A stretch of DNA of 30,107 bases from a virus (lineage: Duplodnaviria; Heunggongvirae; Uroviricota; Caudoviricetes), in the IMG/VR virus record IMGVR_UViG_2698536535_000005, positions 1 to 30,107 of that record. One strand, given 5' to 3'. Of the stretch, positions 9,446 through 26,020 are shown piece after piece. Under the pieces are notes generated by a model. That model had not been told where the DNA came from. It did not search any database and saw only the letters and a program-made list of their open reading frames with translations. Positions within the stretch are counted from its first letter, which is position 1. Each line of letters starts with the position of its first letter. The position numbers and the translations under genes are program-made.

Positions 9446-9472
9446 TACGAAATTTATAAGCTGAAACGTAAA

Positions 9473-9811
9473 GGTAGACGGTTGGTAGACAGATTCACTT
9501 AACCCTCTACCAACCATCTACCAATTAATATTTTGAATTATAAAGATATTTTCAATGTGGTAGAGAGGTAGACAGTTATTTCTATATTCCTAAACCACGG
9601 GGGGTATATAAAAAACAGATAGTTAAGGGGGTATTTTTTAAATTTCTCTTTTAACTGTCTACACTGTCTACCATTTAGTAAAAATCATTAATTATCAATG
9701 TATTAATGCGGTAGACCGTTGGTAGACAGTTTGCAGATTGTTTTTTTGTTATGTGTTAATAACATTAAATAAATCAATCAATTATATCGGTAGACAGTTG
9801 GTAGACAGTTG
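9473..9811. repeat. iteron array, putative replication origin of the element
   Basis: At least ten copies of GGTAGAC(AGTT) in both orientations (e.g. 9473, 9484, 9567, 9708, 9721, 9788, 9800; inverted at 9504, 9515, 9655, 9664) interspersed with AT-rich stretches, directly 3' of the primase gene. Confidence 0.7.
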
Positions 9812-9816
9812 TAACG

Positions 9817-10359
9817 ATGGGGCAAAGCATGACTAAGCTGACCATTAACAGAAAACCAAAAGGTATTTACGGCACGCCACAGAAAACGACGCAGGCGGCA
9901 CAGGAGCAGGATAAAACCACATCGGCGCATAAAGTGATGCCCGGTAACCAGAAAGCGCAGCAGAAGCCTACAGGGGCGACACCGTGGCGGCATATGACCA
10001 AACGCCAGCGCAAAAACCGCAGGCGCGTTAACCGCCTCACTGAGTTGTGGCCTGACTTATTCAGCCGGGAAGCACTGAAGCCGCTTAAGGTGGGGATATT
10101 CGACGACCTGATGCAGGATCTCGCCGTCAGGGGGCTGGCATTCGGGCCAGGGGCATTGCGTGCGACGCTGGCATCTTATGCGCAGTGTCCGCGCTATTAC
10201 CGCGCCTTAATGGCTGGTGGGGTACGCTACGACCTGAAAGGCCAGCCGTGCGGCGAGGTGACACCACAGGAACAACAGGACGCAGAAACGCGGCTGGTGG
10301 CGCTGAATGAGAAGCGCAAACGCCAGCGCCGGGCAGCAAAGGAGACAATAGGCGCATGA
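9817..10359 (+). CDS. FinO/ProQ-family RNA-binding protein
   Basis: Central region ALKPLKVGIFDDLMQDL...LRATLASYAQCPRYYRALMAGGVRYDLKGQPCGEVTPQE aligns by eye with the E. coli ProQ N-terminal FinO domain (PLKIGIF, LR.AL..Y, RY, R.DL.G.PCGE). Confidence 0.6.
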   Translation: MGQSMTKLTINRKPKGIYGTPQKTTQAAQEQDKTTSAHKVMPGNQKAQQKPTGATPWRHMTKRQRKNRRRVNRLTELWPDLFSREALKPLKVGIFDDLMQDLAVRGLAFGPGALRATLASYAQCPRYYRALMAGGVRYDLKGQPCGEVTPQEQQDAETRLVALNEKRKRQRRAAKETIGA

Positions 10360-10643
10360 TTCACGACAGCAAAGCGGAAGCACTGGAAGCGCGTGGTCTG
10401 TACCGGAGAGCGGCGGCGCGGTGGGCTGAGGTCATCATGCTGGCGAATGATGACAAGGCACGGGAACAGGCGGCAAAACGTCGCGCGGAATGTATCCACA
10501 AGGCAGCATGCCCACCAGCAAGGCAGGATAATTTCGGGGAGATGCGCGAAACCATCAGCCGGGCACATGCCGGGATGGGATTACATCAGCCCAATGGTGA
10601 GGCATTCAGGAAATACCAAAAAAAGAACAATTGTAGTCAGTAA
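10356..10643 (+). CDS. PerC-like small transcriptional regulator (tentative)
   Basis: 95-aa ORF with AAGGAG Shine-Dalgarno; N-terminus MIHDSKAEALEARGLYRRAAARWAEV resembles the PerC/Pch family N-terminal pattern as I recall it. Confidence 0.4.
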   Translation: MIHDSKAEALEARGLYRRAAARWAEVIMLANDDKAREQAAKRRAECIHKAACPPARQDNFGEMRETISRAHAGMGLHQPNGEAFRKYQKKNNCSQ

Positions 10644-10777
10644 CAGAGGATGGGATTCTCTTGGTTTTTTGTTGATGCTTTCTGAGGAAATCTACTACGT
10701 TGCTGAGCAGATGAATATTCAATTGCATCTGGGTTCCTGATAAGATTAATCTGAATATTTTCATTTGGAATAGGGAT

Positions 10778-11920
10778 ATGAATAAAACTTTAATTGCAAC
10801 ATTAGTCGGTATAGTAATGTTAACCGGATGTGGGCCAGAAGAGTTAACTCCAGAACAGAAACAGGAAGTAGCGGCTCTTAAAGCTGAACTGTCGCAAACG
10901 GAAGGTGAAATATCAGCAGCTAAGGAAGTTGACCAGCAGTTTTCTGGTGGGTTGATAAAAAATCTGACAACAGCAAGACTGGAAATATTAGGAACTAATA
11001 AAGCGCTTTTGGAACAGCGTATTAATGCTATTGAATCAGGTGCCAAAATTGATGTTGTTGTATCTGGAGTAAAACCTGATCCTGAGCTTGCGGCTTCAAT
11101 TAAAACTGAAATTGACAGCTTAGATGCAAAAATCAACGAAGCCAAAGCTGATGCTCGTCAGTATAGTGGTGGTCTGATAAAGGTACTAAAATTATCTACT
11201 GTTGCCACTGAAGAGCAGACCATGGCAATGTTGCAGCAAAAGTACCTCACAGCCAAGTATGGCCTCGCTGAAGTTAAGCTGGCATCAGTACAAGCTAATG
11301 ACGCAAAAAACAGTACTGAAACGGAAGTAACAGCCAAAAATTCCCAAGAGCAACTTCCTTTACTCCCGCCAGCGGATGGTCCGTTTGGCTTAGAAGCCGG
11401 TCTTACACAGAAAAACATCGAAGATATGATCGGTGCTAAGCTCAAGCCACTACCAGACAGTGTGAATCTGTATACTTCTGATAAATTACCGAAGCAAAAC
11501 GCAGATTTTGAAATGTATGGTTTGCTGATCTCCCCGAAAGCTGGTTTATGTCAAATACGGGCTTTAGGAAAAAATATTGATACTGATAGCTATGGATTGG
11601 CTCTTAAATCCAAGTTTGAAGAATTGAGTAATTCTTTAAGTTCTCTGTATGGAAAGGCTGATACTACAGACTTTTTGCTGGCTGGTTCAATTTGGAAAGA
11701 TCCTCAGGACTGGATGAGGGGGCTAAACAAAAAAGAACGCTTCTTATCTGCCACATGGAAGGGAACAAAAGAAATACCATTAAAAAACAATATCGATACT
11801 ATCTCTATTGAGGCCAGAGCGAACAATTCCACTCAGGGATATGTCTATCTGCAGTACTCATTTACAAATGACGAAATTTGTCAGGCAGAAATTGAAGGGG
11901 CGAAAAAAAGTTCCCTTTAA
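10778..11920 (+). CDS. lipoprotein with coiled-coil region and internal repeat
   Basis: Signal peptide MNKTLIATLVGIVMLTGC with LTGC lipobox; repeated motif QFSGGLIKNL / QYSGGLIKVL; AT-rich; intrinsic terminator directly downstream. Confidence 0.7.
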   Translation: MNKTLIATLVGIVMLTGCGPEELTPEQKQEVAALKAELSQTEGEISAAKEVDQQFSGGLIKNLTTARLEILGTNKALLEQRINAIESGAKIDVVVSGVKPDPELAASIKTEIDSLDAKINEAKADARQYSGGLIKVLKLSTVATEEQTMAMLQQKYLTAKYGLAEVKLASVQANDAKNSTETEVTAKNSQEQLPLLPPADGPFGLEAGLTQKNIEDMIGAKLKPLPDSVNLYTSDKLPKQNADFEMYGLLISPKAGLCQIRALGKNIDTDSYGLALKSKFEELSNSLSSLYGKADTTDFLLAGSIWKDPQDWMRGLNKKERFLSATWKGTKEIPLKNNIDTISIEARANNSTQGYVYLQYSFTNDEICQAEIEGAKKSSL

Positions 11921-11931
11921 ACAATCCGTGC

Positions 11932-11960
11932 AAAGCCCCTTAGTAAGGGGCTTTTATATA
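11932..11960 (+). terminator. intrinsic terminator
   Basis: Perfect inverted repeat AAAGCCCCTTA/TAAGGGGCTTT (11932..11954) followed by a T-rich tail. Confidence 0.55.
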
Positions 11961-11984
11961 TTAATGTTCAACGGGGGGGATTAG

Positions 11985-12308
11985 ATGAAAGATAATCTAG
12001 AAAAACTAATTGAAAATACTTTAAAAGATATTCTATTAGCTAATGCTGCTCTAACATTCATTTTTGCAATACCAATGGCTATTATCAGTAGGCATGGGAT
12101 GGGTATCACAATCTGGTTTATAACTGTGCTCATTGCACCTGCTCTGTGTGCAGTAGGTGCATGGCTTGTATCTCGAACATTCGGTCATGCTGAGGAGTTC
12201 TTTCATCGTCGGTGGGCTAAGCGAATCTATGTTTTTTATACTCTTGCGGCTGCCGAGTTTTTGCTTGTGTACTCAATCGCGCAAATAATGAAAAATCTGA
12301 TGAAATAA
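11985..12308 (+). CDS. small integral membrane protein
   Basis: 107-aa ORF with two or three long hydrophobic segments (ALTFIFAIPMAIIS, ITIWFITVLIAPALCAVGAWLV, IYVFYTLAAAEFLLVYSI); G-rich Shine-Dalgarno. Confidence 0.5.
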   Translation: MKDNLEKLIENTLKDILLANAALTFIFAIPMAIISRHGMGITIWFITVLIAPALCAVGAWLVSRTFGHAEEFFHRRWAKRIYVFYTLAAAEFLLVYSIAQIMKNLMK

Positions 12309-12711
12309 TTAACAAGTTATTATCATGGGGTTTGTGGCTGTTAACCTGCAGTGAGGCGACAATCGTGTATTTATAAAAACTTCCCCTTTTCACTCCCCGC
12401 TGTTTCTTCTGCTATTTCCTTTATGTTTGCATGCAGCAACATCTACCATACCTTTGCAGAAAAATCAGAGCATTTAGTGCCGAAGGTTGGTTTATTGATG
12501 CTTTTTGTTTCATTTATTGCAATTATTGTCATTCAGAAGGGATCATCATGAAAAATCACGGAGTAAAGCCAGTTTTACTTTCCCGGGGGCAGATCGAAGC
12601 CCTGTAACGTATCCAGGCCGAAAAGCGTCAGAAATCTGTGCTTGGTGTGGCACCGTCGATTCATGTTATTGCCCGGCAACTGATGGATAAGGCACTTAAA
12701 GAGGTGAGGCT

Positions 12712-12984
12712 GTGAAATTAAATATCAGTGTGGATAAACGCCAGCTATGGCAGAAAAAAGAGAACAGCGAGGCATTCAGGGCTTTGCTGGTGGAAAATCT
12801 TCGGCACCGGTTCAGTGGAGAGTTGCCTGATGCACTGGGGAAGAAACTGGAATCCCTGACGGTGGAAATTGGCGATTATGGCTTTGTTGATGTTGAAAGC
12901 ACGACTGCCAACACAGAAATCGTAAAGCAGGTCGTCAATGATGTAATGAAAACCACGCTTAGCCAGCCATCCTGGCGCAACTGA
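12712..12984 (+). CDS. hypothetical protein
   Basis: 90-aa ORF with GTG start after GAGGTGAGG; no recognisable motif. Confidence 0.35.
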   Translation: MKLNISVDKRQLWQKKENSEAFRALLVENLRHRFSGELPDALGKKLESLTVEIGDYGFVDVESTTANTEIVKQVVNDVMKTTLSQPSWRN

Positions 12985-13083
12985 ATCAGTAAGGGGCGGT
13001 TATTGCCCCTTTCCTCCATACCCACAACGCATTCCCTTTTCGCATGAAATTATTTTTTATCGTATATGCATGAGGTGAGTTAC

Positions 13084-13608
13084 ATGTTGATGAGTAAAGC
13101 CGAATACGCCAAATACAAAGGCGTAAGCCGCCAGACAGTTTACGACTGGATCGAGAAAGGCGAAGTGATCATGTCTGGCAAAAAAATTGATGTGGAGGCG
13201 ACAGAGCAGCGGAACAGCCCACCGGCACAGGGGAAAGACACCGTTTCTGAAATGTGGCCAGAAAGAACGCTGGAAATGACGTGGGGCGAGTTCTGGAAAG
13301 CAGTTAAGGCCAGAGACGGTAAAATCCCTGCGCCAGTAACGGACGACGACATACAGCAACGTGTGCTGGATGCAGCCGGGGAATTAGACTGGGAAGTGCA
13401 ATTTCTTGATGATGGCGGGATTTGGATGGATGACGGCGATGCTGAGTTTTATTTCGAGCAATATGATCTCAGGCAGAATGCCGAACTGGTGATTGGTACG
13501 CTGCGACGTGAGGTCTGTTATGTGGCTGATGCTTGTCCTGACGAGCTGGATAACTGGAGCGAAGCCGGACTAAACGCCCTGGCTGCATGGGAAAAAACAG
13601 GTCATTAA
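13084..13608 (+). CDS. HTH DNA-binding protein with acidic C-terminal domain (possible small-terminase-like or regulatory protein)
   Basis: Start taken at the ATG preceded by GAGGTGA (track ORF starts 13066); N-terminal MSKAEYAKYKGVSRQTVYDWIEKGEV is a phage-type helix-turn-helix; repeat array immediately downstream. Confidence 0.55.
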   Translation: MLMSKAEYAKYKGVSRQTVYDWIEKGEVIMSGKKIDVEATEQRNSPPAQGKDTVSEMWPERTLEMTWGEFWKAVKARDGKIPAPVTDDDIQQRVLDAAGELDWEVQFLDDGGIWMDDGDAEFYFEQYDLRQNAELVIGTLRREVCYVADACPDELDNWSEAGLNALAAWEKTGH

Positions 13609-13615
13609 CGGCCGC

Positions 13616-13821
13616 AAAAAGTGTCAAGTTGAGCAGCTTGCCAGGTTGGCACTTTACACTCTGAACACGAAAAAGTGTCAACCTCGCTGTAAACCCTGCC
13701 ATTACTGGCCTTGAGCCATATTTACCACGCCAGAAACCCGTGAAAACCGCGAAAAGTGTCAAGTTGTCATGCTTAGAAATGCCAGGGTTTTTCGCGAAAA
13801 AGTGTCAAGTGTGTCAACCTG
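13616..13821. repeat. array of AAAAGTGTCAA boxes (putative protein-binding sites)
   Basis: Five GTGTCAA cores at 13621, 13675, 13756, 13803 and 13811, most preceded by an A-run, between the HTH gene and the next small ORF. Confidence 0.6.
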
Positions 13822-13850
13822 CGATATTAAGATTTCCTAAGGTGTAAACC

Positions 13851-14045
13851 ATGACCATCACCGAAGCCGATTTGCTGGATATAGTGCGCAGCGTGGCTGG
13901 AATTAGCGAATTGCCAAAGAAAGCCAGATTTGCCGATTATGCGGACGTGGTAGCTGCTGCAATGCAGCTAGAAGATCATGCTCCGAATGAAGGAGATTTG
14001 CTGCATATCCGCATCCGATCGGCGGCGATACTGGCAGCCCGTTGA
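13851..14045 (+). CDS. small hypothetical protein
   Basis: 64-aa ORF; weak support only. Confidence 0.3.
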   Translation: MTITEADLLDIVRSVAGISELPKKARFADYADVVAAAMQLEDHAPNEGDLLHIRIRSAAILAAR

Positions 14046-14399
14046 CGCCACCAGCATAGAGAGAACGCCGTGCCTTACGAGTGGAAGAAACCGGACATGC
14101 TGCGGCGATAACCCGTTGATTAAAAGACGGCTCAAAATTGAGCCGGGTAGCAGTTTGTCTGATTTATGCGTTTAGTTGTTGATATTGCCGATGACGAAAA
14201 ATTGCACTCTGTAGCTAGTGGGCGTTTATGTTGAAAACTGCCGATTCTGATAGGCTTTTATCATGCACTTGCATGAAAACTGCTCTGTGTAGCGGGCAGG
14301 CCTGCTGGGGAGAGCATTGCGCGCTTTAGTAGCAATAAAACACATCAATAAGGCTTTTTATTTTCTTGTATTATAAAATTATACTTATTATCTTGTTGA

Positions 14400-14429
14400 T
14401 TGACAGATAAAAACAAGGGATATGCATAA
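14400..14429 (+). promoter_or_regulatory. candidate sigma70 promoter for the 14433..16852 operon
   Basis: TTGACA (14400..14405), 18-bp spacer, CATAAT (14424..14429); so close to the ATG that either the transcript is near-leaderless or another promoter is used. Confidence 0.25.
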
Positions 14430-14432
14430 TAA

Positions 14433-15122
14433 ATGAACAAATCACCTACTGAGATAATTAATATGCTAAGCGATAAGTTCAATAGTAACTTTCGTGAATG
14501 GCAGGGCATACAAGATAAAAAATTAGATAAAGTAATTATCTCAATTTTCACTCTTAACACGATTGCTGAAATTTTGAATAAAAAGAAAACATCAGTTCAT
14601 CATGATGTTTGTATTAAAATTTTTAGTGAGATTATTGCTGATACGTCATCTTCTTTATATCTTTCTGCCTGTGCCATAGATAAACCAGCTAATATTGTTC
14701 TAAGGAGAGTTTTGGAACTAGGTGTCGCATCTATTTATCTTTGGGATATGCCTCATGTTGTATATTCTTGGAAAAATCATGATGAAGACTTAAGTTTCAG
14801 TGATATGTTGAAGCATATAACAAATCAAGGCTATATAGACTACTTCACAGAAAATGAGAAGATAGGAGGGAAAGTATGTGTTATTGATATGAGAAGAGCA
14901 CAGAAAATTTATGGACAATTAAGTGATATCGTTCATGGAAAAATAACCTCATTTGAAACTGATTTGCCTAATAAGTTCACTTTTGAAAGTGAAGATTGGG
15001 AGAGGTTCATAGGTCTGGCTGAGGTTGTTTTGGGTATGATAATTAATTCCAATATTGTTCGTCATAAGATAAGAAAAGAAGTGCTATCTTCATTTCCTAA
15101 ATCTAGTGAGGTAGTTTTATAA
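14433..15122 (+). CDS. hypothetical protein, component A of candidate two-gene system
   Basis: 229-aa ORF, strongly AT-rich; stop overlaps the start of the downstream ATPase gene (TAATG); no recognisable catalytic motif. Confidence 0.7.
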   Translation: MNKSPTEIINMLSDKFNSNFREWQGIQDKKLDKVIISIFTLNTIAEILNKKKTSVHHDVCIKIFSEIIADTSSSLYLSACAIDKPANIVLRRVLELGVASIYLWDMPHVVYSWKNHDEDLSFSDMLKHITNQGYIDYFTENEKIGGKVCVIDMRRAQKIYGQLSDIVHGKITSFETDLPNKFTFESEDWERFIGLAEVVLGMIINSNIVRHKIRKEVLSSFPKSSEVVL

Positions 15123-16852
15123 TGTCTATGTTAGACACTGAGTTATTACATGCAGCACGTACCGAAGATCTTGAGTTGAAACAGGTCAAACAACTGGCTG
15201 TTCTTGGTGAGTTTGAAAAAGATGTTGTAGCAAAACTAAAAATAGCGGGCTCTCATCTGATTCAGGGTGCCAGAGGAATTGGAAAGTCTATGCTTCTAAG
15301 AGCGGCAGAAGCTGAATTAGATAGTGATTTTCCTGTTAAAAAGATTGTGGGGGTATATGTTAATTTCAAAACCAGTACTTTGCTGGAAGGGGTTAAAGCT
15401 GACAATAAAAATGCATTTCAGATATGGGTAAGCGCTAAGTTACTACAAGCTTTGTACGAAAAGTTGATATTTTTAGATGTCATTCGTGACAATAATAGCA
15501 GTGATCCATTTCAAAGAATTTTTGGGATTAAAACTATAACTGGAATGAAAGATGCTCTACAATCTAAAATTCATCTGCTTCAAAGGTTATCAAGAGATCC
15601 TTCTTCAGATAAATTGTTGAATGAAATTGGAGAGGATTTTTTAGATAAGGTTAATGATATAAGTTATGTAAATGACATCATCAAGGAGATAATTCAAGAA
15701 TACCAACTTAATAGAATTGTTTTTTTATTTGATGAGGCTGCTCATACCTTTATACCAGAACAGCAGGAAATATTCTTCGAAATATTTAAATTGCTTCATG
15801 GCGGTAAAATTGCAGTTAAGGCGGCTGTATATCCGTCAATTACATCGTATGGTAAAAATTTTGAAGTTGGTCAAGATGCCATGATGATAAACCTCGGAGG
15901 ATACGAAACTGGAAATATTGGGCGGGAACGAACACGACGTTTATATCGTGATCTATTAGATAAACGGGTCACACAAGGAGCAGCAAAAAAGAGAATATTG
16001 GCTAAAGGTGATTTGCTAGATCAATGTATTCATCTTTCATCCGGAAACCCTAGAGCATTTCTCCATTTATTTAATAAAGTATATGAGAAAGGTTATACTG
16101 AAAGAGATCTTTTAACTTGCACTCAGGATTATGTCAATCAAGAATTATTACCTTATCATTTAGGGCTTTCAAAACGATTACCTAAGTATTCTCACCATGT
16201 TCGCATTGGACTTGATATTCTTAGGGAGTGTATTATCCCTGAGCTTAGATTGAAAAATAACAGAGAGAAAAAGACTCAAACCCAATCTGCTTTTTTTGTT
16301 CTTCCTCCCGTTATTTCTCCAAATCTTAGATTGTCTCTAGATTTGCTTTGTTATTCTGGTGTTCTTTCCAAGCAAGGGTCCGTGAAGATGTCTAATCGAA
16401 AATCGGGTCAGCGCTACATGGTTAATTTATCATTACTTTTCACTGAAAAAGCATTCGTATCTAATAAGTTCGGGGAGATAATAACACTATTATCTCTCGC
16501 TGATTATAAAGAATTTGGCGCAGCAGATTCTGAATTAGAGCGTTTTTTAGAAAAATTGAAAGAATCAGCTGATGAGTGTCAAACTTGTTCCGCTGAGTTA
16601 CCTGGAGATGCGAAGTTTTGTCCTAAGTGTGGGACACCTGTACCAACAAGGTCAATTGTAGGACAACTTCTTGATGATCCGGTTAGTTGCTTGTCAATTA
16701 GTAACGCAATATGCGACCGAATAAAAGAAACCTATCCTAAAGTGGGTGATATCGTTCACTGTTCGAGGGATGATCTGAAAAAAATACCGTACATTAAAAA
16801 TGTTAGGTCAAAAATAATCAAGAACGCAGCGGATGAATATATCTCAGGCTAA
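15122..16852 (+). CDS. Orc1/Cdc6-like AAA+ ATPase with C-terminal zinc ribbon and HhH (RNA polymerase alpha-CTD-like) domain, component B
   Basis: 576-aa ORF; Walker A GARGIGKS, Walker B IVFLFDEAAH, sensor-2-like SGNPRAF; C-terminal CQTC-x11-CPKC zinc ribbon; last ~60 aa resemble the RpoA alpha-CTD; GAGG Shine-Dalgarno; terminator downstream. Confidence 0.8.
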   Translation: MSMLDTELLHAARTEDLELKQVKQLAVLGEFEKDVVAKLKIAGSHLIQGARGIGKSMLLRAAEAELDSDFPVKKIVGVYVNFKTSTLLEGVKADNKNAFQIWVSAKLLQALYEKLIFLDVIRDNNSSDPFQRIFGIKTITGMKDALQSKIHLLQRLSRDPSSDKLLNEIGEDFLDKVNDISYVNDIIKEIIQEYQLNRIVFLFDEAAHTFIPEQQEIFFEIFKLLHGGKIAVKAAVYPSITSYGKNFEVGQDAMMINLGGYETGNIGRERTRRLYRDLLDKRVTQGAAKKRILAKGDLLDQCIHLSSGNPRAFLHLFNKVYEKGYTERDLLTCTQDYVNQELLPYHLGLSKRLPKYSHHVRIGLDILRECIIPELRLKNNREKKTQTQSAFFVLPPVISPNLRLSLDLLCYSGVLSKQGSVKMSNRKSGQRYMVNLSLLFTEKAFVSNKFGEIITLLSLADYKEFGAADSELERFLEKLKESADECQTCSAELPGDAKFCPKCGTPVPTRSIVGQLLDDPVSCLSISNAICDRIKETYPKVGDIVHCSRDDLKKIPYIKNVRSKIIKNAADEYISG

Positions 16853-16859
16853 AGAAAAG

Positions 16860-16883
16860 CCCCATGTAAATGGGGTTTTTTTT
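16860..16883 (+). terminator. intrinsic terminator
   Basis: CCCCAT-GTAA-ATGGGG hairpin (6-bp stem, 4-nt loop) followed by T8, 8 nt after the ATPase stop codon. Confidence 0.8.
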
Positions 16884-16892
16884 AATATGGGT

Positions 16893-17284
16893 TTATACTT
16901 TTAATGCCCGCCAATGCATTAATTCAATTCTTTGTATTAAATAATTAGATCTATTATAAGCTCTTCTGACTTCATTTCTATCAATATGAGATAATGACGT
17001 CTCTATTGCATCTGAATTAAACCCTGCTTCATTTAAAGTTTTACTCGCAATAGAACGCATCCCATGGTAACTAGCTTTCCACCGTAACCAATTCATTTAA
17101 GAGCAGCATTAGCCGTTTGACTATTCATTGGTTGCATAGGATCGTTTCTGCTAGGGAATACATATTCTCGATGACTACTAATAGGTTTCATCACATCCAG
17201 AAATTCTAATGCCTGTGGAAATAAATGAGCAATGTGTTTCCGGTTAGCCTTCATCCGTTCGGTGGGAATTGCGGAGGGCAGCAT
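16893..17284 (-). pseudogene. integrase remnant (C-terminal part of a P4-type tyrosine recombinase, frameshifted and 5'-truncated)
   Basis: Two adjacent minus-strand ORFs (16893..17096, 17093..17284) together align with the C-terminal ~130 aa of the integrase at 1611..2825 (FPSRNDP vs FPGRNDP; HIDRNEVRRAYNRSNYL vs HVDKNSIRGTYNHAQYL); no N-terminal half is present. Confidence 0.7.
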
Positions 17285-17680
17285 AAATGCAGAGGGAAAT
17301 CTGCAAATCCTAGGCTGGCCTTGCCATAAAGCGAAGACGGCGCGGGAGCATACAAGATGATAATTATTATTAGTAACAAAGGGGAGGGCGGGTCAAATCT
17401 CTGTACCCCTAGCTGTTCTGGACCGCCTGCCTCGTCAAATTTTTACACCCGCAAAATTAAAAAAAATACTTCACGCTGGTGGTTATCCTTGGGCATCCAC
17501 TAGCCTTTCATCATTGACTGCTGGTGAGGCTGAGACTCGAAGAAAAAGAGTGCTAGAGAGTCGGTTTTTGCACAGTTTGGGGTAAGGGAAAATTTATTGG
17601 GGGTACATTTGGGGGTATATATAAAAATGCAATGTAAAAATGTCATTAAATATCAATGCGATTGTTGTTTGTGTTTTGTT

Positions 17681-17696
17681 CCTATTATCGCACCAT
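17681..17696. repeat. attR core: degenerate direct repeat of the thrW 3' end
   Basis: CCTATTATCGCACCAT matches tRNA positions 1429..1445 (CCTATTATCGGCACCAT) except for one deleted G. Confidence 0.6.
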
Positions 17697-18302
17697 CAAG
17701 AAAATCAATAACTTAGCTTAACTTCTCTAAGAAATTGTATCTTCTGTTATCACTTACAAACGCCTATACGTTGTTATGGGCTTTGGTAGTGTAACACGTA
17801 TGGGCGAGTAGTTCCCAGGCTCAACCTCGTAACAAGTTCCTTTGAAGCTGGAAGACGTGCCACCGTCTCTAAACCTTCTACCAAAACTCTTAGCAAGATG
17901 TTCCACACCTGGCGCGGTGTCCAATGATGCTACACGTCGAGATGACGTCGCAGAGGATAAACAGGCTAAATGATGGGAAGAGTTTTAAGTGCAATAGTGG
18001 ATTAAAGCCCACCTCTTCAAAACCTAACTTGATCGGGAAAGAATCAAGCTCTAGCACGGTTTCGTCCACCGGAGTACAACGGGTGCCTGATAAGAGAAGA
18101 ACTGCTAAGACTTCATAGCTTTTGTGAAAAAGCCCTTTTTAGTGGATATGCCTACGGCGCTTATTTTTTGGTATAACCATCAAAGGCGCTTTATGGCTCC
18201 TATTGTCTTGAAAATGTATCTTTACTTGTATTGTGTTTTATGCGTAGTCTCCCTGTGTAGTATGTAACTTGTTAATTTTCATATGAATACAGAGGCAACA
18301 CG

Positions 18303-18455
18303 ATGAAAAACATTGCAGCTATAAAACGTAATAACCGCAAGATTCACGCTCGTAAGTTCCTGTCTACGCCAGAGGGAAAAGCCTGGCTAGAGCGTAAACA
18401 GCGAGAGAACGAAGAAAGAAAACTCCTTAGTGAGTTGAAATGGCTTAAGGATTGA
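18303..18455 (+). CDS. small basic hypothetical protein (50 aa)
   Basis: MKNIAAIKRNNRKIHARKFLSTPEGKAWLERKQRENEERKLLSELKWLKD; AGAGG Shine-Dalgarno 8 nt upstream; below the ORF-track cutoff. Confidence 0.25.
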   Translation: MKNIAAIKRNNRKIHARKFLSTPEGKAWLERKQRENEERKLLSELKWLKD

Positions 18456-19005
18456 ATCACCAGTAGGCGCATAACACATCCAGCAATCAAAGATGTGTTT
18501 GTGCGCCTGATAGTGAAATTATTAAAGTTTTTTAGTTAATGTAGCCATTGCATGAACGATGATCGCTAGTGAATCGATTTTATCTCGAGGGGTAAAATAG
18601 ATGAGGTATATGATGGTAACAATTACAGCTAAAGTAATTGTGGTTCTGCAGGTTTTTAAAATGGATAAGATAAAGCGCATAGATACCCCCTATTGATTTA
18701 ACAACAACAAGGTATCATTTATTTTTTATTGCATGCAATGTGCAAATTTTCACATATAATAGCTTACTATTCACTTTGCATGGTGTCAACAAGATGATGT
18801 GTTGTTTTGTTTGATTTGTTCAAGATAATATTTCATTTTCTCATCTATATAACTTGTGTTTTAGATAATTTCACTAATTGTAAAAGTTACGTATTGCTTA
18901 ATAGCTGCCTTTTTATCTGAAATCGGCGCAAACGTGATCAATGTTTAACGCGAAGATCAGCGGCGTCAGGTCCACGCAGCGACAATTCTCAAATATCAGG
19001 AGGCA

Positions 19006-19563
19006 TTACGCTTCCTGCTCTTTCTTGATACGTTGCACCGTCTGTGTGCTGACACTGAAATCTTTTGCTACGCTCCGAATTGATCCACCATTCGCGAGAG
19101 CGGCAACAATTCCCGCTCGATCAATTGCTTTTCCATTACCACGTTTTGCTATACGTCCAGCGGCCTTAGCTGCGGCAATCCCCTCACGTTGCCGCTCAAG
19201 CATCATTTCACGTTCCATTTGTGCCACTGCTGCAAGCACTGTGAGCATCATATTCCCTGCGGGAGAGTTCTTCCCTGTCTTAAAGTCTTCTTTATGGAAA
19301 TGCACAGACACGCCGCGCTCTGTTAATTGCTCAACCGTTGCCAGTAGGTCGGCTGTATTACGGCAAAGTCGATCAATGCTGTGAACATGCAAAACATCAC
19401 CTTCACGCACATAGTTCATCATTGCCTCAAACTGTGGGCGCTGGGTATTCTTGCCTGACGCTTTATCTTCAAAGACTTTATCAAGAGTTACTCCAGCTAA
19501 TTGACGGTCTGTGTTTTGTTGGACAGTCGATACCCTAATGTATCCAATATTAGCCATTTTCAT
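19006..19563 (-). CDS. serine recombinase (resolvase/invertase family)
   Basis: 185-aa protein; N-terminal catalytic motif GYIRVSTVQQNTDRQ with the nucleophilic Ser; small-recombinase length with C-terminal HTH-like region (GGSIRSVAKDFSVSTQTVQRI). Confidence 0.85.
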   Translation of the reverse strand: MKMANIGYIRVSTVQQNTDRQLAGVTLDKVFEDKASGKNTQRPQFEAMMNYVREGDVLHVHSIDRLCRNTADLLATVEQLTERGVSVHFHKEDFKTGKNSPAGNMMLTVLAAVAQMEREMMLERQREGIAAAKAAGRIAKRGNGKAIDRAGIVAALANGGSIRSVAKDFSVSTQTVQRIKKEQEA

Positions 19564-19584
19564 TTTCCTTCTGTGTTGATTTGT

Positions 19585-19688
19585 GTGTAGTGATTATTGA
19601 TCGTGTTGATTAGGTGTGTAAAGGACTTTTTTCACTACGAAATTCGAAGGTTTTTAGTGTGGTGATTTAGCCTGCTTTATCACTACAC
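19585..19688. promoter_or_regulatory. putative res/recombination site upstream of the serine recombinase
   Basis: Four related half-sites: GTGTAGTGA (19585..19593), TCACTAC (19632..19638, inverted), GTGTGGTGA (19657..19665), TCACTACAC (19680..19688, inverted). Confidence 0.4.
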
Positions 19689-20085
19689 GTCTTGCATGAG
19701 AATCATGTAGTTATGTTTTGGTAAAATTAGCAAGCTATTAAATAGCGTGTTTATTTTGAAAAAATTAATTTTTTCAACACGTGAAAGGAACTTGTTCGAC
19801 AAATAATAGATTGATTTTTAATCAACAATTTCTGATAGTGCTCTGTAAGCCACATTACACAAGGCGCAGCGAAAGTGATGTAAAAGTGAAGAAAGCTAAC
19901 ATTGCACTTTTAAGCTACTTTTCATTGAATTTTTAGTATGGAATTACATAGGGATTAATCATCAATTAATCTTGAATTTAAGCCTGTTTTAGATGTTTAA
20001 TTTTTGATAGCAAGAAACACTTTTAGAAGATCATTGCACAGATGTTATGTGATAAATGGATGTAACGGTAGGTCACTGTGAACTA

Positions 20086-20222
20086 CCCCCCACAGAATTC
20101 TGTTATCCTTAACTTTTAAAGAAATATGCACCCTAACAGAAAACTGTTACCCCAACCCTAACAGAATTATGTTAGACACCCCCACAGAAAACTGTTAGCC
20201 ACCCCTACAGAATTTTGTTACC
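20086..20222. repeat. five palindrome-containing iterons (consensus about CCCYAACAGAAWWCTGTTA)
   Basis: Units at about 20086, 20129, 20154, 20180 and 20203; the last four tandem with a ~24-bp period; each contains ACAGAAnnCTGT-type inverted repeat (ACAGAATTCTGT is a perfect palindrome). Confidence 0.7.
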
Positions 20223-20909
20223 TATTAGATCAACTATCAAACTACAATTAAATTATCTTTTATAAATTCTTTTATCTTTAAAGAATAATTATAGGGATAC
20301 CCGTTAGGGGAGTCTTCGACTATCCCTTAATCTATTGGCATTCGCCAGAACCTTGCACAAGTTAGAGTGTTAGTCGTTAGACTGCTTGTCATAACACATA
20401 GTTTTTTGTTTGTTGATGTTAGTTAGTAGATCTATGTTCGCTAATGCCGCTCACAACGAATATGTAATCTACTATGTGCAAATAGCCTACGGCTTGCGTA
20501 AGGCTAAATAGTCTTGCGCTGTGCGCAGAACGATAATTAACTAACTACCATCTAACGATCATCAATCTATTTAAGAGAAAATCTATTGTGCAATACTCTG
20601 ACGAGTGCAATAACCTTGTGTGCTACGCGTTAGCGATGTTAGCACATAGACACAGACAACAACCAACAACAAACAAAAAAGAATGGTTTTAGTAGTTGAA
20701 GGTTAAATAAGATTCTACCGCTTAAATCAAGCCGTAGGCGAGCTAAACAGCCATTACATAAGGGAATGTATTGTTTTTATCAAAACCTCGTTAGAACGCG
20801 TTTTAGAGCGTTTTAGACAATAATAAAGAATAGCACTACACATGAGAGCACGAATTGCTAAGAAATATCATAACTTACTGAAAATCATCAATATTTATAT
20901 GGATAGGGG

Positions 20910-20938
20910 TTGACAAAAGCTTTTAGTCGTGGTAAAGT
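20910..20938 (+). promoter_or_regulatory. candidate sigma70 promoter for the rightward small-gene operon
   Basis: TTGACA (20910..20915), 17-bp spacer, TAAAGT (20933..20938), about 120 nt upstream of the 21059 ATG, which has an AGGAGG Shine-Dalgarno. Confidence 0.4.
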
Positions 20939-21058
20939 AATATTAGGGACAGAAAACATTCTTATCCTCTAAGTAATTAAACCAATGCACCGCACTTTGA
21001 AGCCCAAGGCTTGCAAGGTGTCTTTTTCTTTTAACCAAATAGAATAGGAGGTTAATTA

Positions 21059-21259
21059 ATGAAGTATTACACTCCACAGGATGTAATCGAAGCCTGGAAA
21101 CGTGGTGAGATCAATCGTTTTAAAGTAAGGATGAACAGGAACACAGCGCGACGCTGTGGTTATCCAGAGCGTGAAAAATGCTTTGACGATGCACTAAAAA
21201 TTATTGATGAATTAAGAAAAAATGAAAAAGGATCTGAAAAAGAATCTGAAACAGAGTAA
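21059..21259 (+). CDS. small hypothetical protein
   Basis: 66-aa ORF with perfect AGGAGG Shine-Dalgarno. Confidence 0.5.
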   Translation: MKYYTPQDVIEAWKRGEINRFKVRMNRNTARRCGYPEREKCFDDALKIIDELRKNEKGSEKESETE

Positions 21260-21278
21260 AGAAGAGAAGGAGAAAACT

Positions 21279-21449
21279 ATGAGCGAAACTACAGAAAAGA
21301 AAAGACAACCACGCACTTGCTTTCATATTCCTGATGAAGTATTTCAGGTGTTGTTTAAAGAAGCCAGAAGTAAACGTATCACTGTTACAGATTACATTCT
21401 TGATATGTTGAAAAGAGAGGCTGAAACACTCTCAAACAAAAGCAAGTGA
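21279..21449 (+). CDS. ribbon-helix-helix-like small DNA-binding protein (tentative)
   Basis: Start taken at the ATG preceded by AAGGAG (track ORF starts 21222 and overlaps the upstream gene); segment RTCFHIPDEVFQVLFKEARSKRITVTDYILDMLKRE fits the RHH strand-helix-helix pattern. Confidence 0.45.
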   Translation: MSETTEKKRQPRTCFHIPDEVFQVLFKEARSKRITVTDYILDMLKREAETLSNKSK

Positions 21450-21502
21450 TTTTTATCACCATAGTAGCGCCGTAGAGCGTGATTACATCAAGGAGATTTT
21501 TA

Positions 21503-22072
21503 ATGATTAATGAAGAACAATTTGTAAAAGTTCCTATGTGGATTCTAAAAATAAGCCAAGTAAACGGGCATAAATTTACAGATAGTGCTAAAAACCTTTA
21601 CTGCTATTTGAGAGGGTTTGATCGTGCATTTCCCTCTTACGCTAAGATAGGCGATGTTTTTGGCATAACACCAAGAGCAGCAGAAGAAAGGGTTAAGAAA
21701 TTGCTCGAAATGGGATTAATTATAAAAGATGCACGACCAGGAAGCTCTAACCTTTATCGAGTGCTTGATATTCCAAAAGGAGAATCATCACTACCTGATC
21801 CTTCTGAGAAAGAAGACGAATCTAATGAAATATTGAATGTTTCCGAAATCATCGTTGAAGAAGAAACACAGGAATCAGAGTTCCCTGAGCGGCCCGAAAT
21901 TTTTACTTGGCTTCTTTCCCTTGATAAGAAGAAACCACCGCACGAAGAAACAGAAGATTTTGTAAAACGTGCATTAGATTCAAAGAATATCTATCTTGAG
22001 AAACAGGCTTTTCACGATCTGATAATATCTCTAAGAGAAAAAAGTGAAATATACGATTCAATACCATTCTAA
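21503..22072 (+). CDS. winged-helix/HTH protein with acidic C-terminal region (possible replication initiator or regulator)
   Basis: Start at the ATG preceded by AGGAG (track ORF starts 21479); N-terminal PMWILK...NLYCYLRGF...IGDVFGITPRAAEERVKKLLEMGLI is HTH-like; acidic tail. Confidence 0.5.
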   Translation: MINEEQFVKVPMWILKISQVNGHKFTDSAKNLYCYLRGFDRAFPSYAKIGDVFGITPRAAEERVKKLLEMGLIIKDARPGSSNLYRVLDIPKGESSLPDPSEKEDESNEILNVSEIIVEEETQESEFPERPEIFTWLLSLDKKKPPHEETEDFVKRALDSKNIYLEKQAFHDLIISLREKSEIYDSIPF

Positions 22073-22081
22073 GGAGAATAA

Positions 22082-22351
22082 ATGACTTATAACATCACTA
22101 TAGGAAACAAAACTATTGAAATAACTGAAAGCGGATACAACATTTTAAAAGCTATTTTGGACATAGAGTTCTCACCCCCGACAGTGGTTAGCTTTTGTAG
22201 TTTAGGCGGCTACAGCGCACAACATGTGAATCATTGGTTAAACCATTTTACATCGTTCGGTGTGCTGGATTATGAAGGGATTAACCACACTACATTTCGT
22301 CTTTTGAAATTAAACAAAGATTTTGAATTGTTTATCACAAACAATCAATAA
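22082..22351 (+). CDS. hypothetical protein
   Basis: 89-aa ORF with AAGGAG Shine-Dalgarno. Confidence 0.5.
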   Translation: MTYNITIGNKTIEITESGYNILKAILDIEFSPPTVVSFCSLGGYSAQHVNHWLNHFTSFGVLDYEGINHTTFRLLKLNKDFELFITNNQ

Positions 22352-22447
22352 CAACAGATCGGGCAATACATATGGCAAATGCATTTATGGCGATATTCAT
22401 CGTAACAATGGTATCAAGTTTTTATAATCCACATAAAAAGAAGGAAA

Positions 22448-22831
22448 ATGGGAAGAAAGAAAAAGAACAACTTAAAACGTATTGAAAAAAACAGTAACTT
22501 CAATTCAACAAGACAACGTCCACCGACACACACCAATAACGAAATTCCAGGGGAAGAGATAATATTTATTCTTGAAACAGAATCCCCTGAATTAAGCGAT
22601 GAAGAACAAGAAATAATCAAATCAATGCCAGGCGTTTACTTTCGCCCAAGAACAAGAAAACAAACAATAATTTCTGATGGCACTCTGAAACGTTGGCAGC
22701 TTTTAGGGTTTAGCTCCTATCATCATTTTTTGGGATTTAACGCTTTCAATAATTGTGTAGGTGGTGCATCGGAAGTCGATCTGATGGCTCATTTAGAAGA
22801 TACATTAGCTTCTAACAAACGCTCTAACTAA
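22448..22831 (+). CDS. hypothetical protein
   Basis: 127-aa ORF with AAGGAA Shine-Dalgarno; basic N-terminus. Confidence 0.5.
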   Translation: MGRKKKNNLKRIEKNSNFNSTRQRPPTHTNNEIPGEEIIFILETESPELSDEEQEIIKSMPGVYFRPRTRKQTIISDGTLKRWQLLGFSSYHHFLGFNAFNNCVGGASEVDLMAHLEDTLASNKRSN

Positions 22832-22846
22832 TAAAAGGATGGTCGT

Positions 22847-23092
22847 ATGTATAAGCGCCCAATGAAAATATTCGAAAAAGGAAAAATAATGATTGGCTAT
22901 ATTCAAGAAACACAATTATTTCAGATGATCCTGTCTGATGCAAAAAACTATGCTGAGTTAATCCGACTGGCAAAAGAAACAGAAGACTACGAAGCATTAG
23001 AGCGTTATCGTGATGAAGTGCTGACGCTCAAGACACCTTTTAACATCGTATTGAATATGATTAATGATGCATTACAAGGAGAAGCCGCATAA
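22847..23092 (+). CDS. hypothetical protein
   Basis: 81-aa ORF with AAGGA Shine-Dalgarno. Confidence 0.45.
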   Translation: MYKRPMKIFEKGKIMIGYIQETQLFQMILSDAKNYAELIRLAKETEDYEALERYRDEVLTLKTPFNIVLNMINDALQGEAA

Positions 23093-23403
23093 TGGAAGAA
23101 GATATTAGCAATGCAATGGAACAACTTTTAGATCTGACTATCTCACTACAAACAAGAATAAATCAAGCCTATTCAGATTTATGCGATTACACGCTCTCTC
23201 AATGCGTTATTAGCTTAATGAAGGTGAATGTAAGCCTTGACGATTTTATCTCTCTGGTGAGCGATTTAGAGCTAATTGAGGACGATGCCAAGATGTGCAC
23301 TCAAACCATCACAGACACCGCCAGCACGTTAAAGGCTGCAAGTGAAGAGATTCAGCAATTAGTAGATGATTTAGCAAAAAGTGCTATTCCCTCTAAATGG
23401 TAA
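23092..23403 (+). CDS. hypothetical acidic helical protein
   Basis: 103-aa ORF; start overlaps the previous stop (TAATG). Confidence 0.45.
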   Translation: MEEDISNAMEQLLDLTISLQTRINQAYSDLCDYTLSQCVISLMKVNVSLDDFISLVSDLELIEDDAKMCTQTITDTASTLKAASEEIQQLVDDLAKSAIPSKW

Positions 23404-24391
23404 TGAAAATCATTTGCATTTATATAATAAAAATGTTATATTAGTATTAAGGGTAGATAAAAAGGTTTTGACTGGTGTTAATCCTTCTACTGTCATAAAT
23501 CCCTGCATATGGAAGGTGATAGCCTCAAGGGTTGAGTGGCATTAACCTCTAACAAATATTACCTTCCATCTCTCAAGAAGTTTTAGAATAATCATAACTC
23601 CCTCTTTGATTGTTGATTGTTTCTACGTTGTGTTGATGAATGTTGTTAGGCATTGTGCTTAATTTTGATAAAAGCGGGTAGGTGTTATCTCCTTGCCCTT
23701 CCCGCTCTTATTTTTCATCTATGCTTATCCTAAAGCTCCTTATTTTGTCCGAAAACATTAAAGAGCCTTACACTGATAGTTATATTTTATAACTATTTAC
23801 TAACATCATTAAACTCTTATTTAATGACAGAAGTTAGTAACAGAATAATCTATTAAGTTGTTGTCAAAAAACTATCATCTGCATAGCGTTAGCCGCAAGC
23901 AGAGAGAGTTTAGCTAAGAATTGTGCAATAACCTTTGGAAATATTGATAGCAAAACGGGTTTTATAGACTGCAAATCTATAATCTTTGGTTGTAAAAACG
24001 CTTTTTCTGAAACGGTAGATTATTGTTGGTGTAGTTAATCCCTATTAAAATTTAATCTGTGAGTAGATTGGAATAGTGATTCCTTAAAATCTGACTGGTG
24101 CATCCACACCATGAAAGATAGCGGTTAGCCACCGCACCCGAATAGATATTCCTGATTGATTCCGCATGTTTTCCTAAGAGCATGTTTTCAGGAATATCTG
24201 TTCACCCTTTAAACCTATCTTTAAGCATGTTTAATAAGCATTCTTAGAGATACGTTTAAAACCTCCTCAAGGTTTTACTTATCGCTGTGTATTGCCCGAC
24301 ACGTTAATAAATCCCCCTCGCTATTCTCAGATTGAACCTCTTATAGCCTGGGGGATTTATTAAATTCCAACATAATGGAATCGTTATATAA

Positions 24392-24601
24392 ATGAAACAA
24401 GAAATTATCCTGAAATATGGCAATGAAAAGTTAACACTAACTGAAGATGTGTTGAATGCTACAGCCTACGCGCTTGGTATCACTCCCACAGAATTAAAGA
24501 AACAGTGTGAACGTCTTTATAAGGCTGAAAGCAATAAACCATCTCACCAAGATTTGATTAATGCTAAAGCTCAACAAATCAAACAATCTAAGGAAAAATA
24601 A
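24392..24601 (+). CDS. small hypothetical protein
   Basis: 69-aa ORF; stop overlaps the start of the next gene. Confidence 0.4.
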   Translation: MKQEIILKYGNEKLTLTEDVLNATAYALGITPTELKKQCERLYKAESNKPSHQDLINAKAQQIKQSKEK

Positions 24602-24975
24602 TGGCTATTTTAAAATTAAGCGATGTTTTCCTACATCGTAAAAGCATCACTGACGTAGTGAGCTATGCAACCGACCCTTACGCGGCTGTAGAAAGCAAAA
24701 AATTTGCAGCACTTGCACAAGATGTAACGTGCGGCGACCTCATTGATTCATCCGGCGCTAAATATGTTAGCGGCGCTGATGTTCTTGTCGTTGTGTCTGA
24801 CTTCGTAACTGCTGATTCAAATAAAACAGTTAACGTGCTTCGTGCTAATGCCGGACTCGTTTGCATCAAAGCTGATGCCCTGAATGCCGAAGGCGCTGTA
24901 AAAGAAGCTGCTATTGCAGCTCTCGCTGCTAAAGGCTTCCAGCTTGAAGGCTTCCACTCTGTTTTCACATCTTAA
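24601..24975 (+). CDS. hypothetical protein, possible virion decoration or scaffold-type protein (speculative)
   Basis: 124-aa ORF immediately upstream of a ~340-aa gene, the lambda D-E type arrangement; Ala/Val-rich; no direct motif evidence. Confidence 0.5.
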   Translation: MAILKLSDVFLHRKSITDVVSYATDPYAAVESKKFAALAQDVTCGDLIDSSGAKYVSGADVLVVVSDFVTADSNKTVNVLRANAGLVCIKADALNAEGAVKEAAIAALAAKGFQLEGFHSVFTS

Positions 24976-24991
24976 GAAGGAATAAATAATA

Positions 24992-26020
24992 ATGATTATC
25001 GGAAATGAAGTGGTTGATCTTGCTCCACTGTTCGAATTAAACGACTCACGCAATTACCTACTGTCTACTCTGGATTTTACTGATCCTGTGCCTGTAGAAA
25101 GTCACAAAGTGGCTGTTTCCCAGCTTATCGAGAGCAATGAATCTCTGTTCAACCATCCTACAAGCCGTTTTAGCTCTGAGCATAACGTTACTAAGCGTGA
25201 GAACGGGGAAGAATATCTTATTGAAATCCCGTACTTTTTAAGGGAAGACCTGATCAAACCGCAGGACGTGCAAGGCAAACGCAAAGCCGGAAGCTCTATT
25301 GAAGAAACACTGCCGGATCTGTATGCGGAATATATCGCTAAACACAATGTTGCATTCCAGCGCACTAAAGAAAGCATCCTCGCGGCTTCTCTGTTCTCTG
25401 GCAAGACACACACCCCGAAAACTGACGATGTTCTGATCGATTACAGCACTCTGTTCGGTGTGTCTCCAATGACTGCAACCGTTGACGCATCCAGCACCAA
25501 CACAATGACCGTATTCAAGCAATTTGATCAGATGCATACGGATATGATTGCTAAGGCACAAAGCCAGGCTGCAACCATTGAGCGTGTTGTTGTGTTCTGT
25601 AAACCTGCGGCATTCAACGCTATTCGTTACAGCGTTGGCATGGTTAATGCGTTCCAGTATGCAAGCCCTGTAGACGATGCAAACGTGGTGTTTAATGTGC
25701 GTTCTCTGCTGCCTGGTGTAACTACTTTCACCATTCCAGGAACTAACATTGACCTGATCAAAGTGACTGATCCGCTGCTGCTGGCACATATGACCGCTGA
25801 CGCTGTAGCTATTCCTAAACTTGCTAAGGGGGCAGGTGTTTACCAAGCTATTTTTGGTGCGCCTTCCAGTTCATTCGATCTGCTGTCTCAAGGCGCTAAA
25901 GAGTATTACAGCTATGCTTTCGAATCGAATCGCGGCGACGCAGTGCACGTAGTGACCGAGAATAGCTCGCTTGTGGTTAACCACGGTGTTGGCTTCTCTG
26001 TGCAGATCACAGTAGCGTAA
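24992..26020 (+). CDS. hypothetical protein, possible major capsid-like protein (speculative)
   Basis: 342-aa ORF with strong AAGGAA Shine-Dalgarno; size and position after a ~120-aa gene resemble the lambda gpD/gpE arrangement; similarity to gpE not demonstrable by eye. Confidence 0.55.
   Translation: MIIGNEVVDLAPLFELNDSRNYLLSTLDFTDPVPVESHKVAVSQLIESNESLFNHPTSRFSSEHNVTKRENGEEYLIEIPYFLREDLIKPQDVQGKRKAGSSIEETLPDLYAEYIAKHNVAFQRTKESILAASLFSGKTHTPKTDDVLIDYSTLFGVSPMTATVDASSTNTMTVFKQFDQMHTDMIAKAQSQAATIERVVVFCKPAAFNAIRYSVGMVNAFQYASPVDDANVVFNVRSLLPGVTTFTIPGTNIDLIKVTDPLLLAHMTADAVAIPKLAKGAGVYQAIFGAPSSSFDLLSQGAKEYYSYAFESNRGDAVHVVTENSSLVVNHGVGFSVQITVA

Follow-up and report, generated by a model that had tools for sequence, protein, structure and literature searches.

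A P4-type cargo site beside a dead integrase fragment points to cargo exchange between satellite families in a PICI-type island at thrW

The window, the whole stretch of DNA analyzed here, comprises 30,107 nucleotides (nt; positions 1 to 30,107 of the IMG/VR virus record IMGVR_UViG_2698536535_000005, Caudoviricetes) and carries at the tRNA gene thrW a mobile island, island 1, in which a truncated integrase gene (the integrase stub) lies beside a two-gene cargo (Table 1). We consider it likely that this arrangement reflects cargo exchange between two kinds of satellite, with a P4-type cassette site inside an island of the phage-inducible chromosomal island (PICI) type, and not a collapsed tandem of islands at thrW. 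P4-like satellites keep their variable defence cargo between a P2-type cohesive-end site (cos) and the 3′ end of the integrase gene, which is transcribed toward the cargo. The hotspot of island 1 has matching flanks, with a P2-type cos to the left of the cargo and the integrase stub to the right of it. We infer that the island acquired its two cargo genes, and with them no less than the cargo-side two thirds of the stub, by recombining with a P4-like satellite that had the same two genes. What is left of the stub may serve, together with cos, as a patch of homology for cassette exchange with P4-like satellites and between island variants. What lies to the right of the stub is the island's own end, namely the decaying stub of an HNH endonuclease gene, a conserved phiP27-type cos, arm repeats, and attR.

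The stub is read from two minus-strand open reading frames (ORFs), 17284..17093 and 17096..16893, which join into a sequence of 129 amino acids (aa). This sequence matches the NCBIfam model PRK09692 over positions 269-390 of 413 (E 7.7e-53) and residues 262-383 of the integrase of island 1 with 38% identity (E 1e-28). The integrase fragment is genuine and far beyond chance, in agreement with a preliminary description of this DNA that had reported a frameshifted, 5′-truncated integrase C-terminus on the minus strand. The lesions were mapped by nucleotide alignment against the closest intact E. coli relative. They are an in-frame TGA at 17095..17093 in place of the AGG of the intact relative, the deletion of a single nucleotide between 17067 and 17066, and the loss of all sequence 5′ of about codon 267-269. 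The native stop codon is retained (16895..16893). Like the IntA-type integrases of P4 and CP4-57 (PRK09692), the stub holds the H-x-x-R motif (HGMRS) and the catalytic Tyr region (RRAYNRS); unlike them, it has lost two thirds of the protein and contains the internal stop and the frameshift. The arm-binding domain, the core-binding domain, and the first catalytic Arg are missing. The stub therefore shows the family homology of a P4/IntA-type tyrosine integrase and lacks the full uninterrupted ORF of 395-413 aa with all domains. RefSeq lists the identical sequence from four complete E. coli genomes as a pseudogene that has a frameshift and an internal stop and lacks the N-terminus, and on its sequence the stub is a pseudogene fragment predicted to be incapable of recombinase activity. 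Differences between the stub and intact integrases are distributed 23:13:52 over the three codon positions, while comparisons between intact integrases give 20:7:51 and 18:10:58. This coding-type pattern indicates that the stub derives from a working gene that was inactivated fairly recently.

The closest relatives of the stub are integrases of P4-like satellites that use ssrA, the gene for transfer-messenger RNA (tmRNA). At 78% aa identity to the intact integrase of the ssrA P4-like satellite of E. coli AREA_504, the fragment is clearly no unrelated protein. Three other ssrA P4-like satellite integrases show 71-75% aa identity, the thrW integrase of island 1 shows 41%, and no relationship is detectable to the integrase of island 2, the element that follows island 1 in the window. 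Across 5,426 complete E. coli genomes the closest intact relatives reach 70-76% nt identity. The three sampled E. coli relatives belong to P4-like satellites beside ssrA with the order Psu, cos, variable cargo on the plus strand, integrase on the minus strand, and tmRNA gene; all six closest intact relatives examined sit in P4-like satellites with the same series from cos to the tmRNA gene. No protein more than 78% identical to the stub was found among 5.8 billion proteins, and no phage-record protein exceeds 61%. The cargo-side part (codons 310-393) is closest to a Kosakonia integrase (80% nt), and the junction-side part (codons 269-309) to E. coli ssrA-type integrases (82%), with the stubs of other island variants at 69-75%. 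Hence the stub is a dead fragment of an ssrA-clade P4-like-satellite integrase, from a distinct working lineage and with a short decay time.

The DNA on the cargo side of the stub has the layout of the P4-like defence hotspot (PMC9122126, PMC13586616), with which it shares a P2-type cos, about 120 nt, the cargo, 30-50 nt, and the 3′ end of an integrase gene on the opposite strand. All features of such a hotspot are present, as there is a P2-type cos upstream, a cargo convergent with and near to an integrase 3′ end, and differing cargo at the same site. The left edge, 14261..14325, matches P2-like phages between gene A and the portal gene and aligns with P2 cosL/cosR, with ENT90, and with the cos of P4-like satellites; the equivalent of the 19-nt cohesive end of P2 is GGCCTGCTGGGGAGAGCAT at 14299..14317. 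A scan of the window for the canonical P2 cohesive-end pattern gave no match, and a scan for lambda cosN gave one near-match, in island 2, at chance level. On the right, 41 nt separate the cargo stop (16852) from the stub stop (16893), and the matching gaps between cargo and integrase are 25-51 nt in L003, L057, L058, L077, L080, and L082, satellites of the compared set. The hairpin in this spacer and the arm repeats at the right end of the island lie where they had been placed in the preliminary description. An Rfam search of 13500..21000 found nothing.

The closest counterpart of the whole segment is the Kosakonia satellite L077. Positions 14261..17257 of the window are collinear with 6146..9140 of L077 in one stretch, at 81.9% nt identity over 3010 nt. 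Identity is 75% in cos, 84% in the 229-aa gene, 84% in the 576-aa gene, 75% in the terminator spacer with the hairpin, and 73-79% in the integrase stub. Both ends of the homology are sharp, the left one at 14261 and the right one at 17270-17273.

Bona fide P4-like satellites carry this cargo pair as well. For the 576-aa protein, an ORC/Cdc6-like ATPase, the nearest relatives come from Kosakonia (94%), Citrobacter (83%), and Serratia (82%), and all three are encoded in P4-like satellites with a 777-aa alpha primase, Ash, AlpA, and Ogr/Delta (Psu in two of the three). In each of them the 229-aa partner lies upstream, an intact integrase of 395-397 aa lies 32-51 nt downstream on the opposite strand, and the tmRNA gene follows. 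The 229-aa protein is 89% identical in amino acids to its Kosakonia counterpart. Among the 10 contexts listed for the exact 576-aa protein, every one is island 1. A scan of species-representative genomes for this protein returned only distant taxa, with no integrase nearby; the pair is kept in such taxa (Sulfuricurvum, Nitrospirae, Electrothrix, Methylophilus), where the 576-aa protein has 65-70% and the partner 41-49% aa identity. PADLOC and NCBIfam give no defence family above threshold for the pair. Because it occupies defence hotspots of P4-like satellites, the pair appears as a candidate for a new defence system.

The island that holds this site is a Gram-negative PICI-type satellite and not a P4-like one. 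It extends from 1426/1428 to 17696 (16.3 kb), between cores at 1428..1445 and 17680..17696; the alignment of the island shared with E. coli WWCOL-236 begins at 1426. Its genes encode an integrase, AlpA, an AntA-type protein, a DUF4222 protein, a primase, a ProQ/FinO protein, PerC, several uncharacterised proteins, and the two-gene cargo. The layout is that of a Gram-negative PICI, with int, alpA, and a primase/replication module co-oriented, a size of 10-20 kb, and att repeats at a specific site. The P4-like core set (psu, delta/ogr, sid, ash/epsilon, alpha primase) is absent as such; no Psu, Ogr/Delta (Ogr_Delta), or Phage_ASH was detected in Pfam scans of the island 1 ORFs, and the RefSeq annotation of an identical island agrees. 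Compared with P4-like satellites, island 1 thus lacks Psu, Sid, Delta/Ogr, and Ash, has a D5-type primase of 601 aa in place of the 777-aa alpha protein, and integrates at thrW by its own integrase at the other end, so that the integrase on the hotspot side is merely a stub. The gene 1611..2825 is, from its full-length sequence, the predicted working thrW integrase of island 1.

Recombination at the cargo site is visible when variants of the island are compared. We sampled five thrW island variants, which carry five different cargoes, and in all five the minus strand between cargo and right end holds a remnant of the C-terminus of a P4-like integrase (E 4e-21 to 1e-6). In the window, with the 229-aa and 576-aa pair, the remnant covers integrase residues 269-393 at 63-80% aa identity to intact integrases. 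It covers residues 267-388 in three frames in EC11, with an ATP-dependent nuclease as cargo (44-62% aa), 267-366 in K56-43-un, with GapS1 (~45% aa), 275-326 in ARS-C301, with a DUF4747 protein and a partner (41-46% aa), and only 356-379 in E189, with a methyltransferase/DUF262/HEPN cargo (50-58% aa). The junction-side third of the stub is 90-95% identical at the nucleotide level among EC11, K56-43-un, and ARS-C301, and the cargo-side part 62-72%. Starting at about codon 309 of the stub and continuing across the HNH stub, cos, and right arm, EC11 and K56-43-un share 97.7% identity. Leftward of that codon they are unrelated, which places a recombination breakpoint inside the stub. The P2-type cos, which looks intact in the window, has decayed in E189; EC11 keeps half of it, and ARS-C301 has lost nearly all of it. 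Around the left crossover in cos, the cohesive-end region of the window resembles the E189 island and P4-like sequences alike. The GapS1 cargo of K56-43-un was not found in a search of E. coli P4-like satellites.

These comparisons bear on a simpler history, in which an ancient chimera captured the P4-like series of cos, cargo, and integrase 3′ end a single time, the stubs decayed vertically with the window copy as the least decayed one, and later swaps involved neither P4-like satellites nor the stub. Four variants show a similar truncation beside the HNH stub, the distances are compatible with one ancestor, and the window and EC11 diverge as much in the integrase stub (31%) as in the HNH stub (31%), which is apparently neutral. 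However, substitutions in the window stub follow a coding-type pattern and its lesions number only two, the integrase nearest to its cargo-side part belongs to a satellite with the same cargo, and cargo and stub together are collinear with that satellite. The contrast between cargo-side parts at 62-72% and junction-side parts at 90-95% also points to breakpoints inside the stub. We regard a single capture as improbable.

Several observations nevertheless weigh against exchange with P4-like satellites as we propose it. The similar 5′ truncation (about codons 267-275) beside the HNH stub in four of the five variants fits one capture as well as repeated imports, and the additive distances permit either. 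Overall, the stub is closer to the AREA_504 integrase (78%) than to the Kosakonia integrase that accompanies the same cargo (75%). Because this same-cargo integrase is not the closest one and no relative above 78% was found, either the exact donor is unsampled or the stub is a mosaic. The identity between the island and present-day P4-like sequences (~70-80%) is low for RecA-dependent recombination, which weakens the proposed role of cos and stub as homology arms. A survey (PMC13586616) found no close homologues of P4 or P2 defence genes in PICIs or capsid-forming PICIs (cfPICIs), and exchange between P4-like satellites and PICIs should therefore be at best uncommon.

The intact ssrA integrases offer a side observation on the same gene end. 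In L003, L057, and L058 the nt identity of about 0.8-0.9 falls to about 0.72-0.77 over the last ~90 codons beside the hotspot. This is suggestive, although not decisive given the modest drop, of the integrase 3′ end recombining along with the cargo in true P4-like satellites too.

The preliminary description had attributed the fragment to past tandem integration or to recombination between related elements at thrW. On this account a second, related island once stood in tandem at thrW, and deletion or recombination left the C-terminus of its integrase inside attR. The site does accept more than one island; two elements stand in tandem in the window, split by a core repeat, and integrase fragments lie beside attR in other strains. 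The array has the order thrW, island 1, core, island 2, and three core repeats delimit it in E189. A remnant of a tandem partner would be an integrase of the thrW clade, outside the att core, and reading away from the tRNA gene. The stub does not fit this description, as it is of the ssrA clade and not of the clade of either thrW integrase. It is a C-terminal piece, placed on the inner side of both the attR core and the arm repeats and on the strand opposite to that expected. Aligned with the integrase of island 1 (1611..2825), it is only a distant relative (38-41% aa) and no duplicated copy. True tandem scars look different. In MS8345, APEC E19019, and K56-43-un, truncated P4-type integrase pseudogenes also occur at thrW, but these are N-terminal "Arm DNA-binding" fragments on the plus strand after attR. 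Compared with the stub, they represent the other end of the gene, lie on the other strand and beyond attR, and are part of the island that follows in the array.

The synteny of the island in other strains leads to the same result. Island 1 recurs at 99.9% identity (window 1426..17718) in WWCOL-236, where it stands behind the other element in the reverse order, a variant of it is found alone in TUM9757, and in PCP06173 it is truncated by IS1 with no island 2 after it. Since the island including the stub recurs in WWCOL-236 and TUM9757, the stub belongs to the mobile unit, which it accompanies in three different arrangements of the array. The exact junction from island 1 with this cargo to island 2 (window 16700..18200) occurs in none of the 5,426 genomes. 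With the stub, cargo, and cos also collinear with a P4-like hotspot, a collapsed tandem is very improbable, and the genuine tandem array in the window is unconnected with the stub. What stands of the earlier interpretation is that the fragment is a recombination scar, lying 41 nt from the cargo operon and relevant to cargo swapping.

To the right of the stub the sequence changes to that of a phage late region. The integrase had been thought to extend over 16893..17400, immediately inside attR; it reaches only to about 17270, the remainder of the interval is the stub of an HNH endonuclease gene and then a phiP27-type cos, and the attR core lies 410 nt right of the stub end. The HNH stub encodes AEGSINAEGNLQILGWPCHKAKTAREHTR followed by a stop and is 66% identical to residues 88-116 of the phiP27 protein. 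In the adjoining intergenic region the annotated cos site of phiP27 aligns with the 10-mer CGCCTGCCTC (17424..17433). Matches to the linear records of SfI, SfV, SfII, and 118970_sal3 reach 2-13 nt from the record ends, with the SfI end at about 17433. An exact-match scan of viral contigs for the phiP27-type cos core of the island gave no match. This core (17386..17460) is 88% identical to phiP27 and the HNH part 73%. Between the window and the variants ARS-C301 and EC11, which gave similar values, identity is 68-69% in the HNH stub, 60-64% in the spacer, 81-84% in the cos core, 85% in the post-cos segment, and 85% in the right arm. As the cos is conserved while the neighbouring HNH stub diverges, the phiP27-type cos is probably kept by selection beside the decaying gene and would be the packaging site of the island. 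HNH stub, phiP27-type cos, and post-cos segment occur together in 21 of the 5,426 E. coli genomes, in three sequence classes and with other cargoes included. We also considered the cfPICIs beside phoQ as a source of the HNH-cos piece and rejected them, for only 14076..14208 matches those elements. This 133-nt segment upstream of the P2-type cos is 71-72% identical to their right-end region in E. coli L063/L064.

The integrase stub and the HNH stub abut with an overlap of at most 6 nt (17268..17273), as would be found if a satellite had once been integrated in the HNH gene of a phiP27-like prophage, a helper-embedded PICI in which the two stubs were neighbours from the start. Satellite integrases that target prophage late genes exist (PMC10111431); in the text consulted, HNH does not appear among the target genes of that clade. 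The integrase is cut at about codon 267 with no promoter-proximal part, and the relatives of the stub all use ssrA. Because the cut falls in mid-gene and no att site is present, we read the junction as an illegitimate join and not as an att junction, and a helper-embedded origin seems barely conceivable.

A search for repeats of the thrW 3′ end that allowed mismatches only missed attR, which differs by a 1-nt deletion; an indel-tolerant search and inspection found the core. Most island variants lack one G in this copy (TCCTATTATCGCACCAT versus TCCTATTATCGGCACCAT), so that thrW could be left damaged by excision, and a damaged tRNA copy is reported as typical of PICIs (PMC10111431).

Island 1 shares with Gram-negative PICIs such as EcCICFT073 (PMC6092414, PMC10111431) a co-oriented series of integrase, AlpA, Bro/AntA-type zone, and primase with downstream iterons, together with a variable "late" zone, a cos near the right end, and the damaged tRNA copy at attR. 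The position of a helper-type cos near the right end agrees with what these two sources report. Island 1 differs in that its right-end cos is of the phiP27/HK97 type with an HNH stub and not of the lambda type, and in that a second, P2-type cos lies 3.1 kb upstream with a P4-like integrase stub between the two. EcCICFT073 also has two cos sites. Since both cos sites of the window variant are heterologous and apparently intact, packaging by two unrelated helper families could occur. We see only a modest chance that the hotspot is a docking site for P4-type cassettes, with cos and stub as arms, one cargo pool for two satellite families, and possible packaging by either helper. A dimer of the island would measure 32.6 kb, near the P2 genome length (33.6 kb).

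Two further repeat arrays were observed in island 1. Clusters of GGTAGAC(N)GTT repeats (9473..9811) lie directly downstream of the primase gene and are probably its replication origin. Two tandem 33-nt repeats (3824..3889), 88% identical, lie between a 267-aa ORF and alpA and may be a regulatory site. Island 2 (17697..30107) is a second mobile element at the same thrW core; its length in E189 is about 12.5 kb, and it sits before or after island 1 depending on the strain.

Table 1 Features of the window.
Feature	Position	Strand	Basis or remark
proA	window start, then thrW		
thrW, tRNA-Thr(CGT)	1369..1444	+	ARAGORN
attL core of island 1, thrW 3′ end, TCCTATTATCGGCACCAT	1428..1445	+	core repeat search
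Integrase of island 1, intact, P4/IntA-type	1611..2825	+	NCBIfam PRK09692, E 1.5e-91, full length
AlpA of island 1	3979..4176		Pfam
Primase of island 1, 601 aa, D5_N/DUF5906/Pox_D5	7640..9445		Pfam
P2-type cos, left edge of cargo hotspot	14261..14325	+	matches to P2-like phages at cos position
Cargo gene 1, 229-aa protein	14433..15122	+	Pfam
Cargo gene 2, 576-aa ORC/Cdc6-like ATPase with zinc ribbon	15122..16852	+	Pfam
Hairpin CCCCAT GTAA ATGGGG with T-runs on both strands, between convergent cargo and stub	16860..16885		sequence reading; minus-strand version found by terminator scan
Integrase stub, codons ~269-393 of a ~395-aa P4-like-satellite integrase (last ~125 codons)	16893..17270	-	alignment, NCBIfam
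Phage HNH endonuclease gene stub, last 29 codons and TGA	17271..17360	+	comparison with phiP27 protein
Complete HNH-to-terS intergenic (cos) region of phiP27/ST64B/SfI-type phages	17361..17465	+	phage alignment
Conserved right arm of island 1	17466..17679	+	includes post-cos segment 17466..17547
Arm-type repeats TTGGGGGTA	17576..17584, 17597..17605, 17609..17617	+	resemble those beside attL (1537..1610)
attR core of island 1, left core of island 2, TCCTATTATCGCACCAT	17680..17696	+	thrW 3′ end minus one G
Hin-like invertase, island 2	19006..19563	-	
Five 23-24-nt iterons, island 2	20085..20223		
O-like replication protein, island 2	21479..22072		
Lambda-E-type capsid protein, island 2	24992..26020		
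613-aa protein, island 2			
Dit-like tail protein, island 2	28294..28971		
Tyrosine integrase, island 2	runs off window end	-	

Rapid cassette swapping in the defence hotspots of satellites has already been described, and small pseudogene remnants in P4-like defence loci are taken as traces of intense recombination (PMC9122126, PMC13586616). RefSeq, too, had already labelled the stub a pseudogene. The novelty lies in the context, a PICI-type island that contains a P4-type cassette site and has its cargo pair in common with P4-like satellites of other genera. On the question of how defence systems move among unrelated mobile elements, the 2026 survey in PMC13586616, which reported no close homologues of P4/P2 defence genes in PICIs or cfPICIs, listed homologous recombination via shared flanks as unlikely between different element types, and the locus described here is a concrete counter-example with its footprints preserved. 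The case is modest in kind and informative as a documented example. It also provides a practical rule, by which a cassette site in an island other than a P4-like one can be recognised from a C-terminal integrase stub on the minus strand next to a cos-like sequence. Because an E. coli island of the PICI type and P4-like satellites from Kosakonia, Citrobacter, and Serratia share one cargo pair, and both P4-type flanks are still recognisable in the island, the mechanism of exchange becomes testable at this locus.

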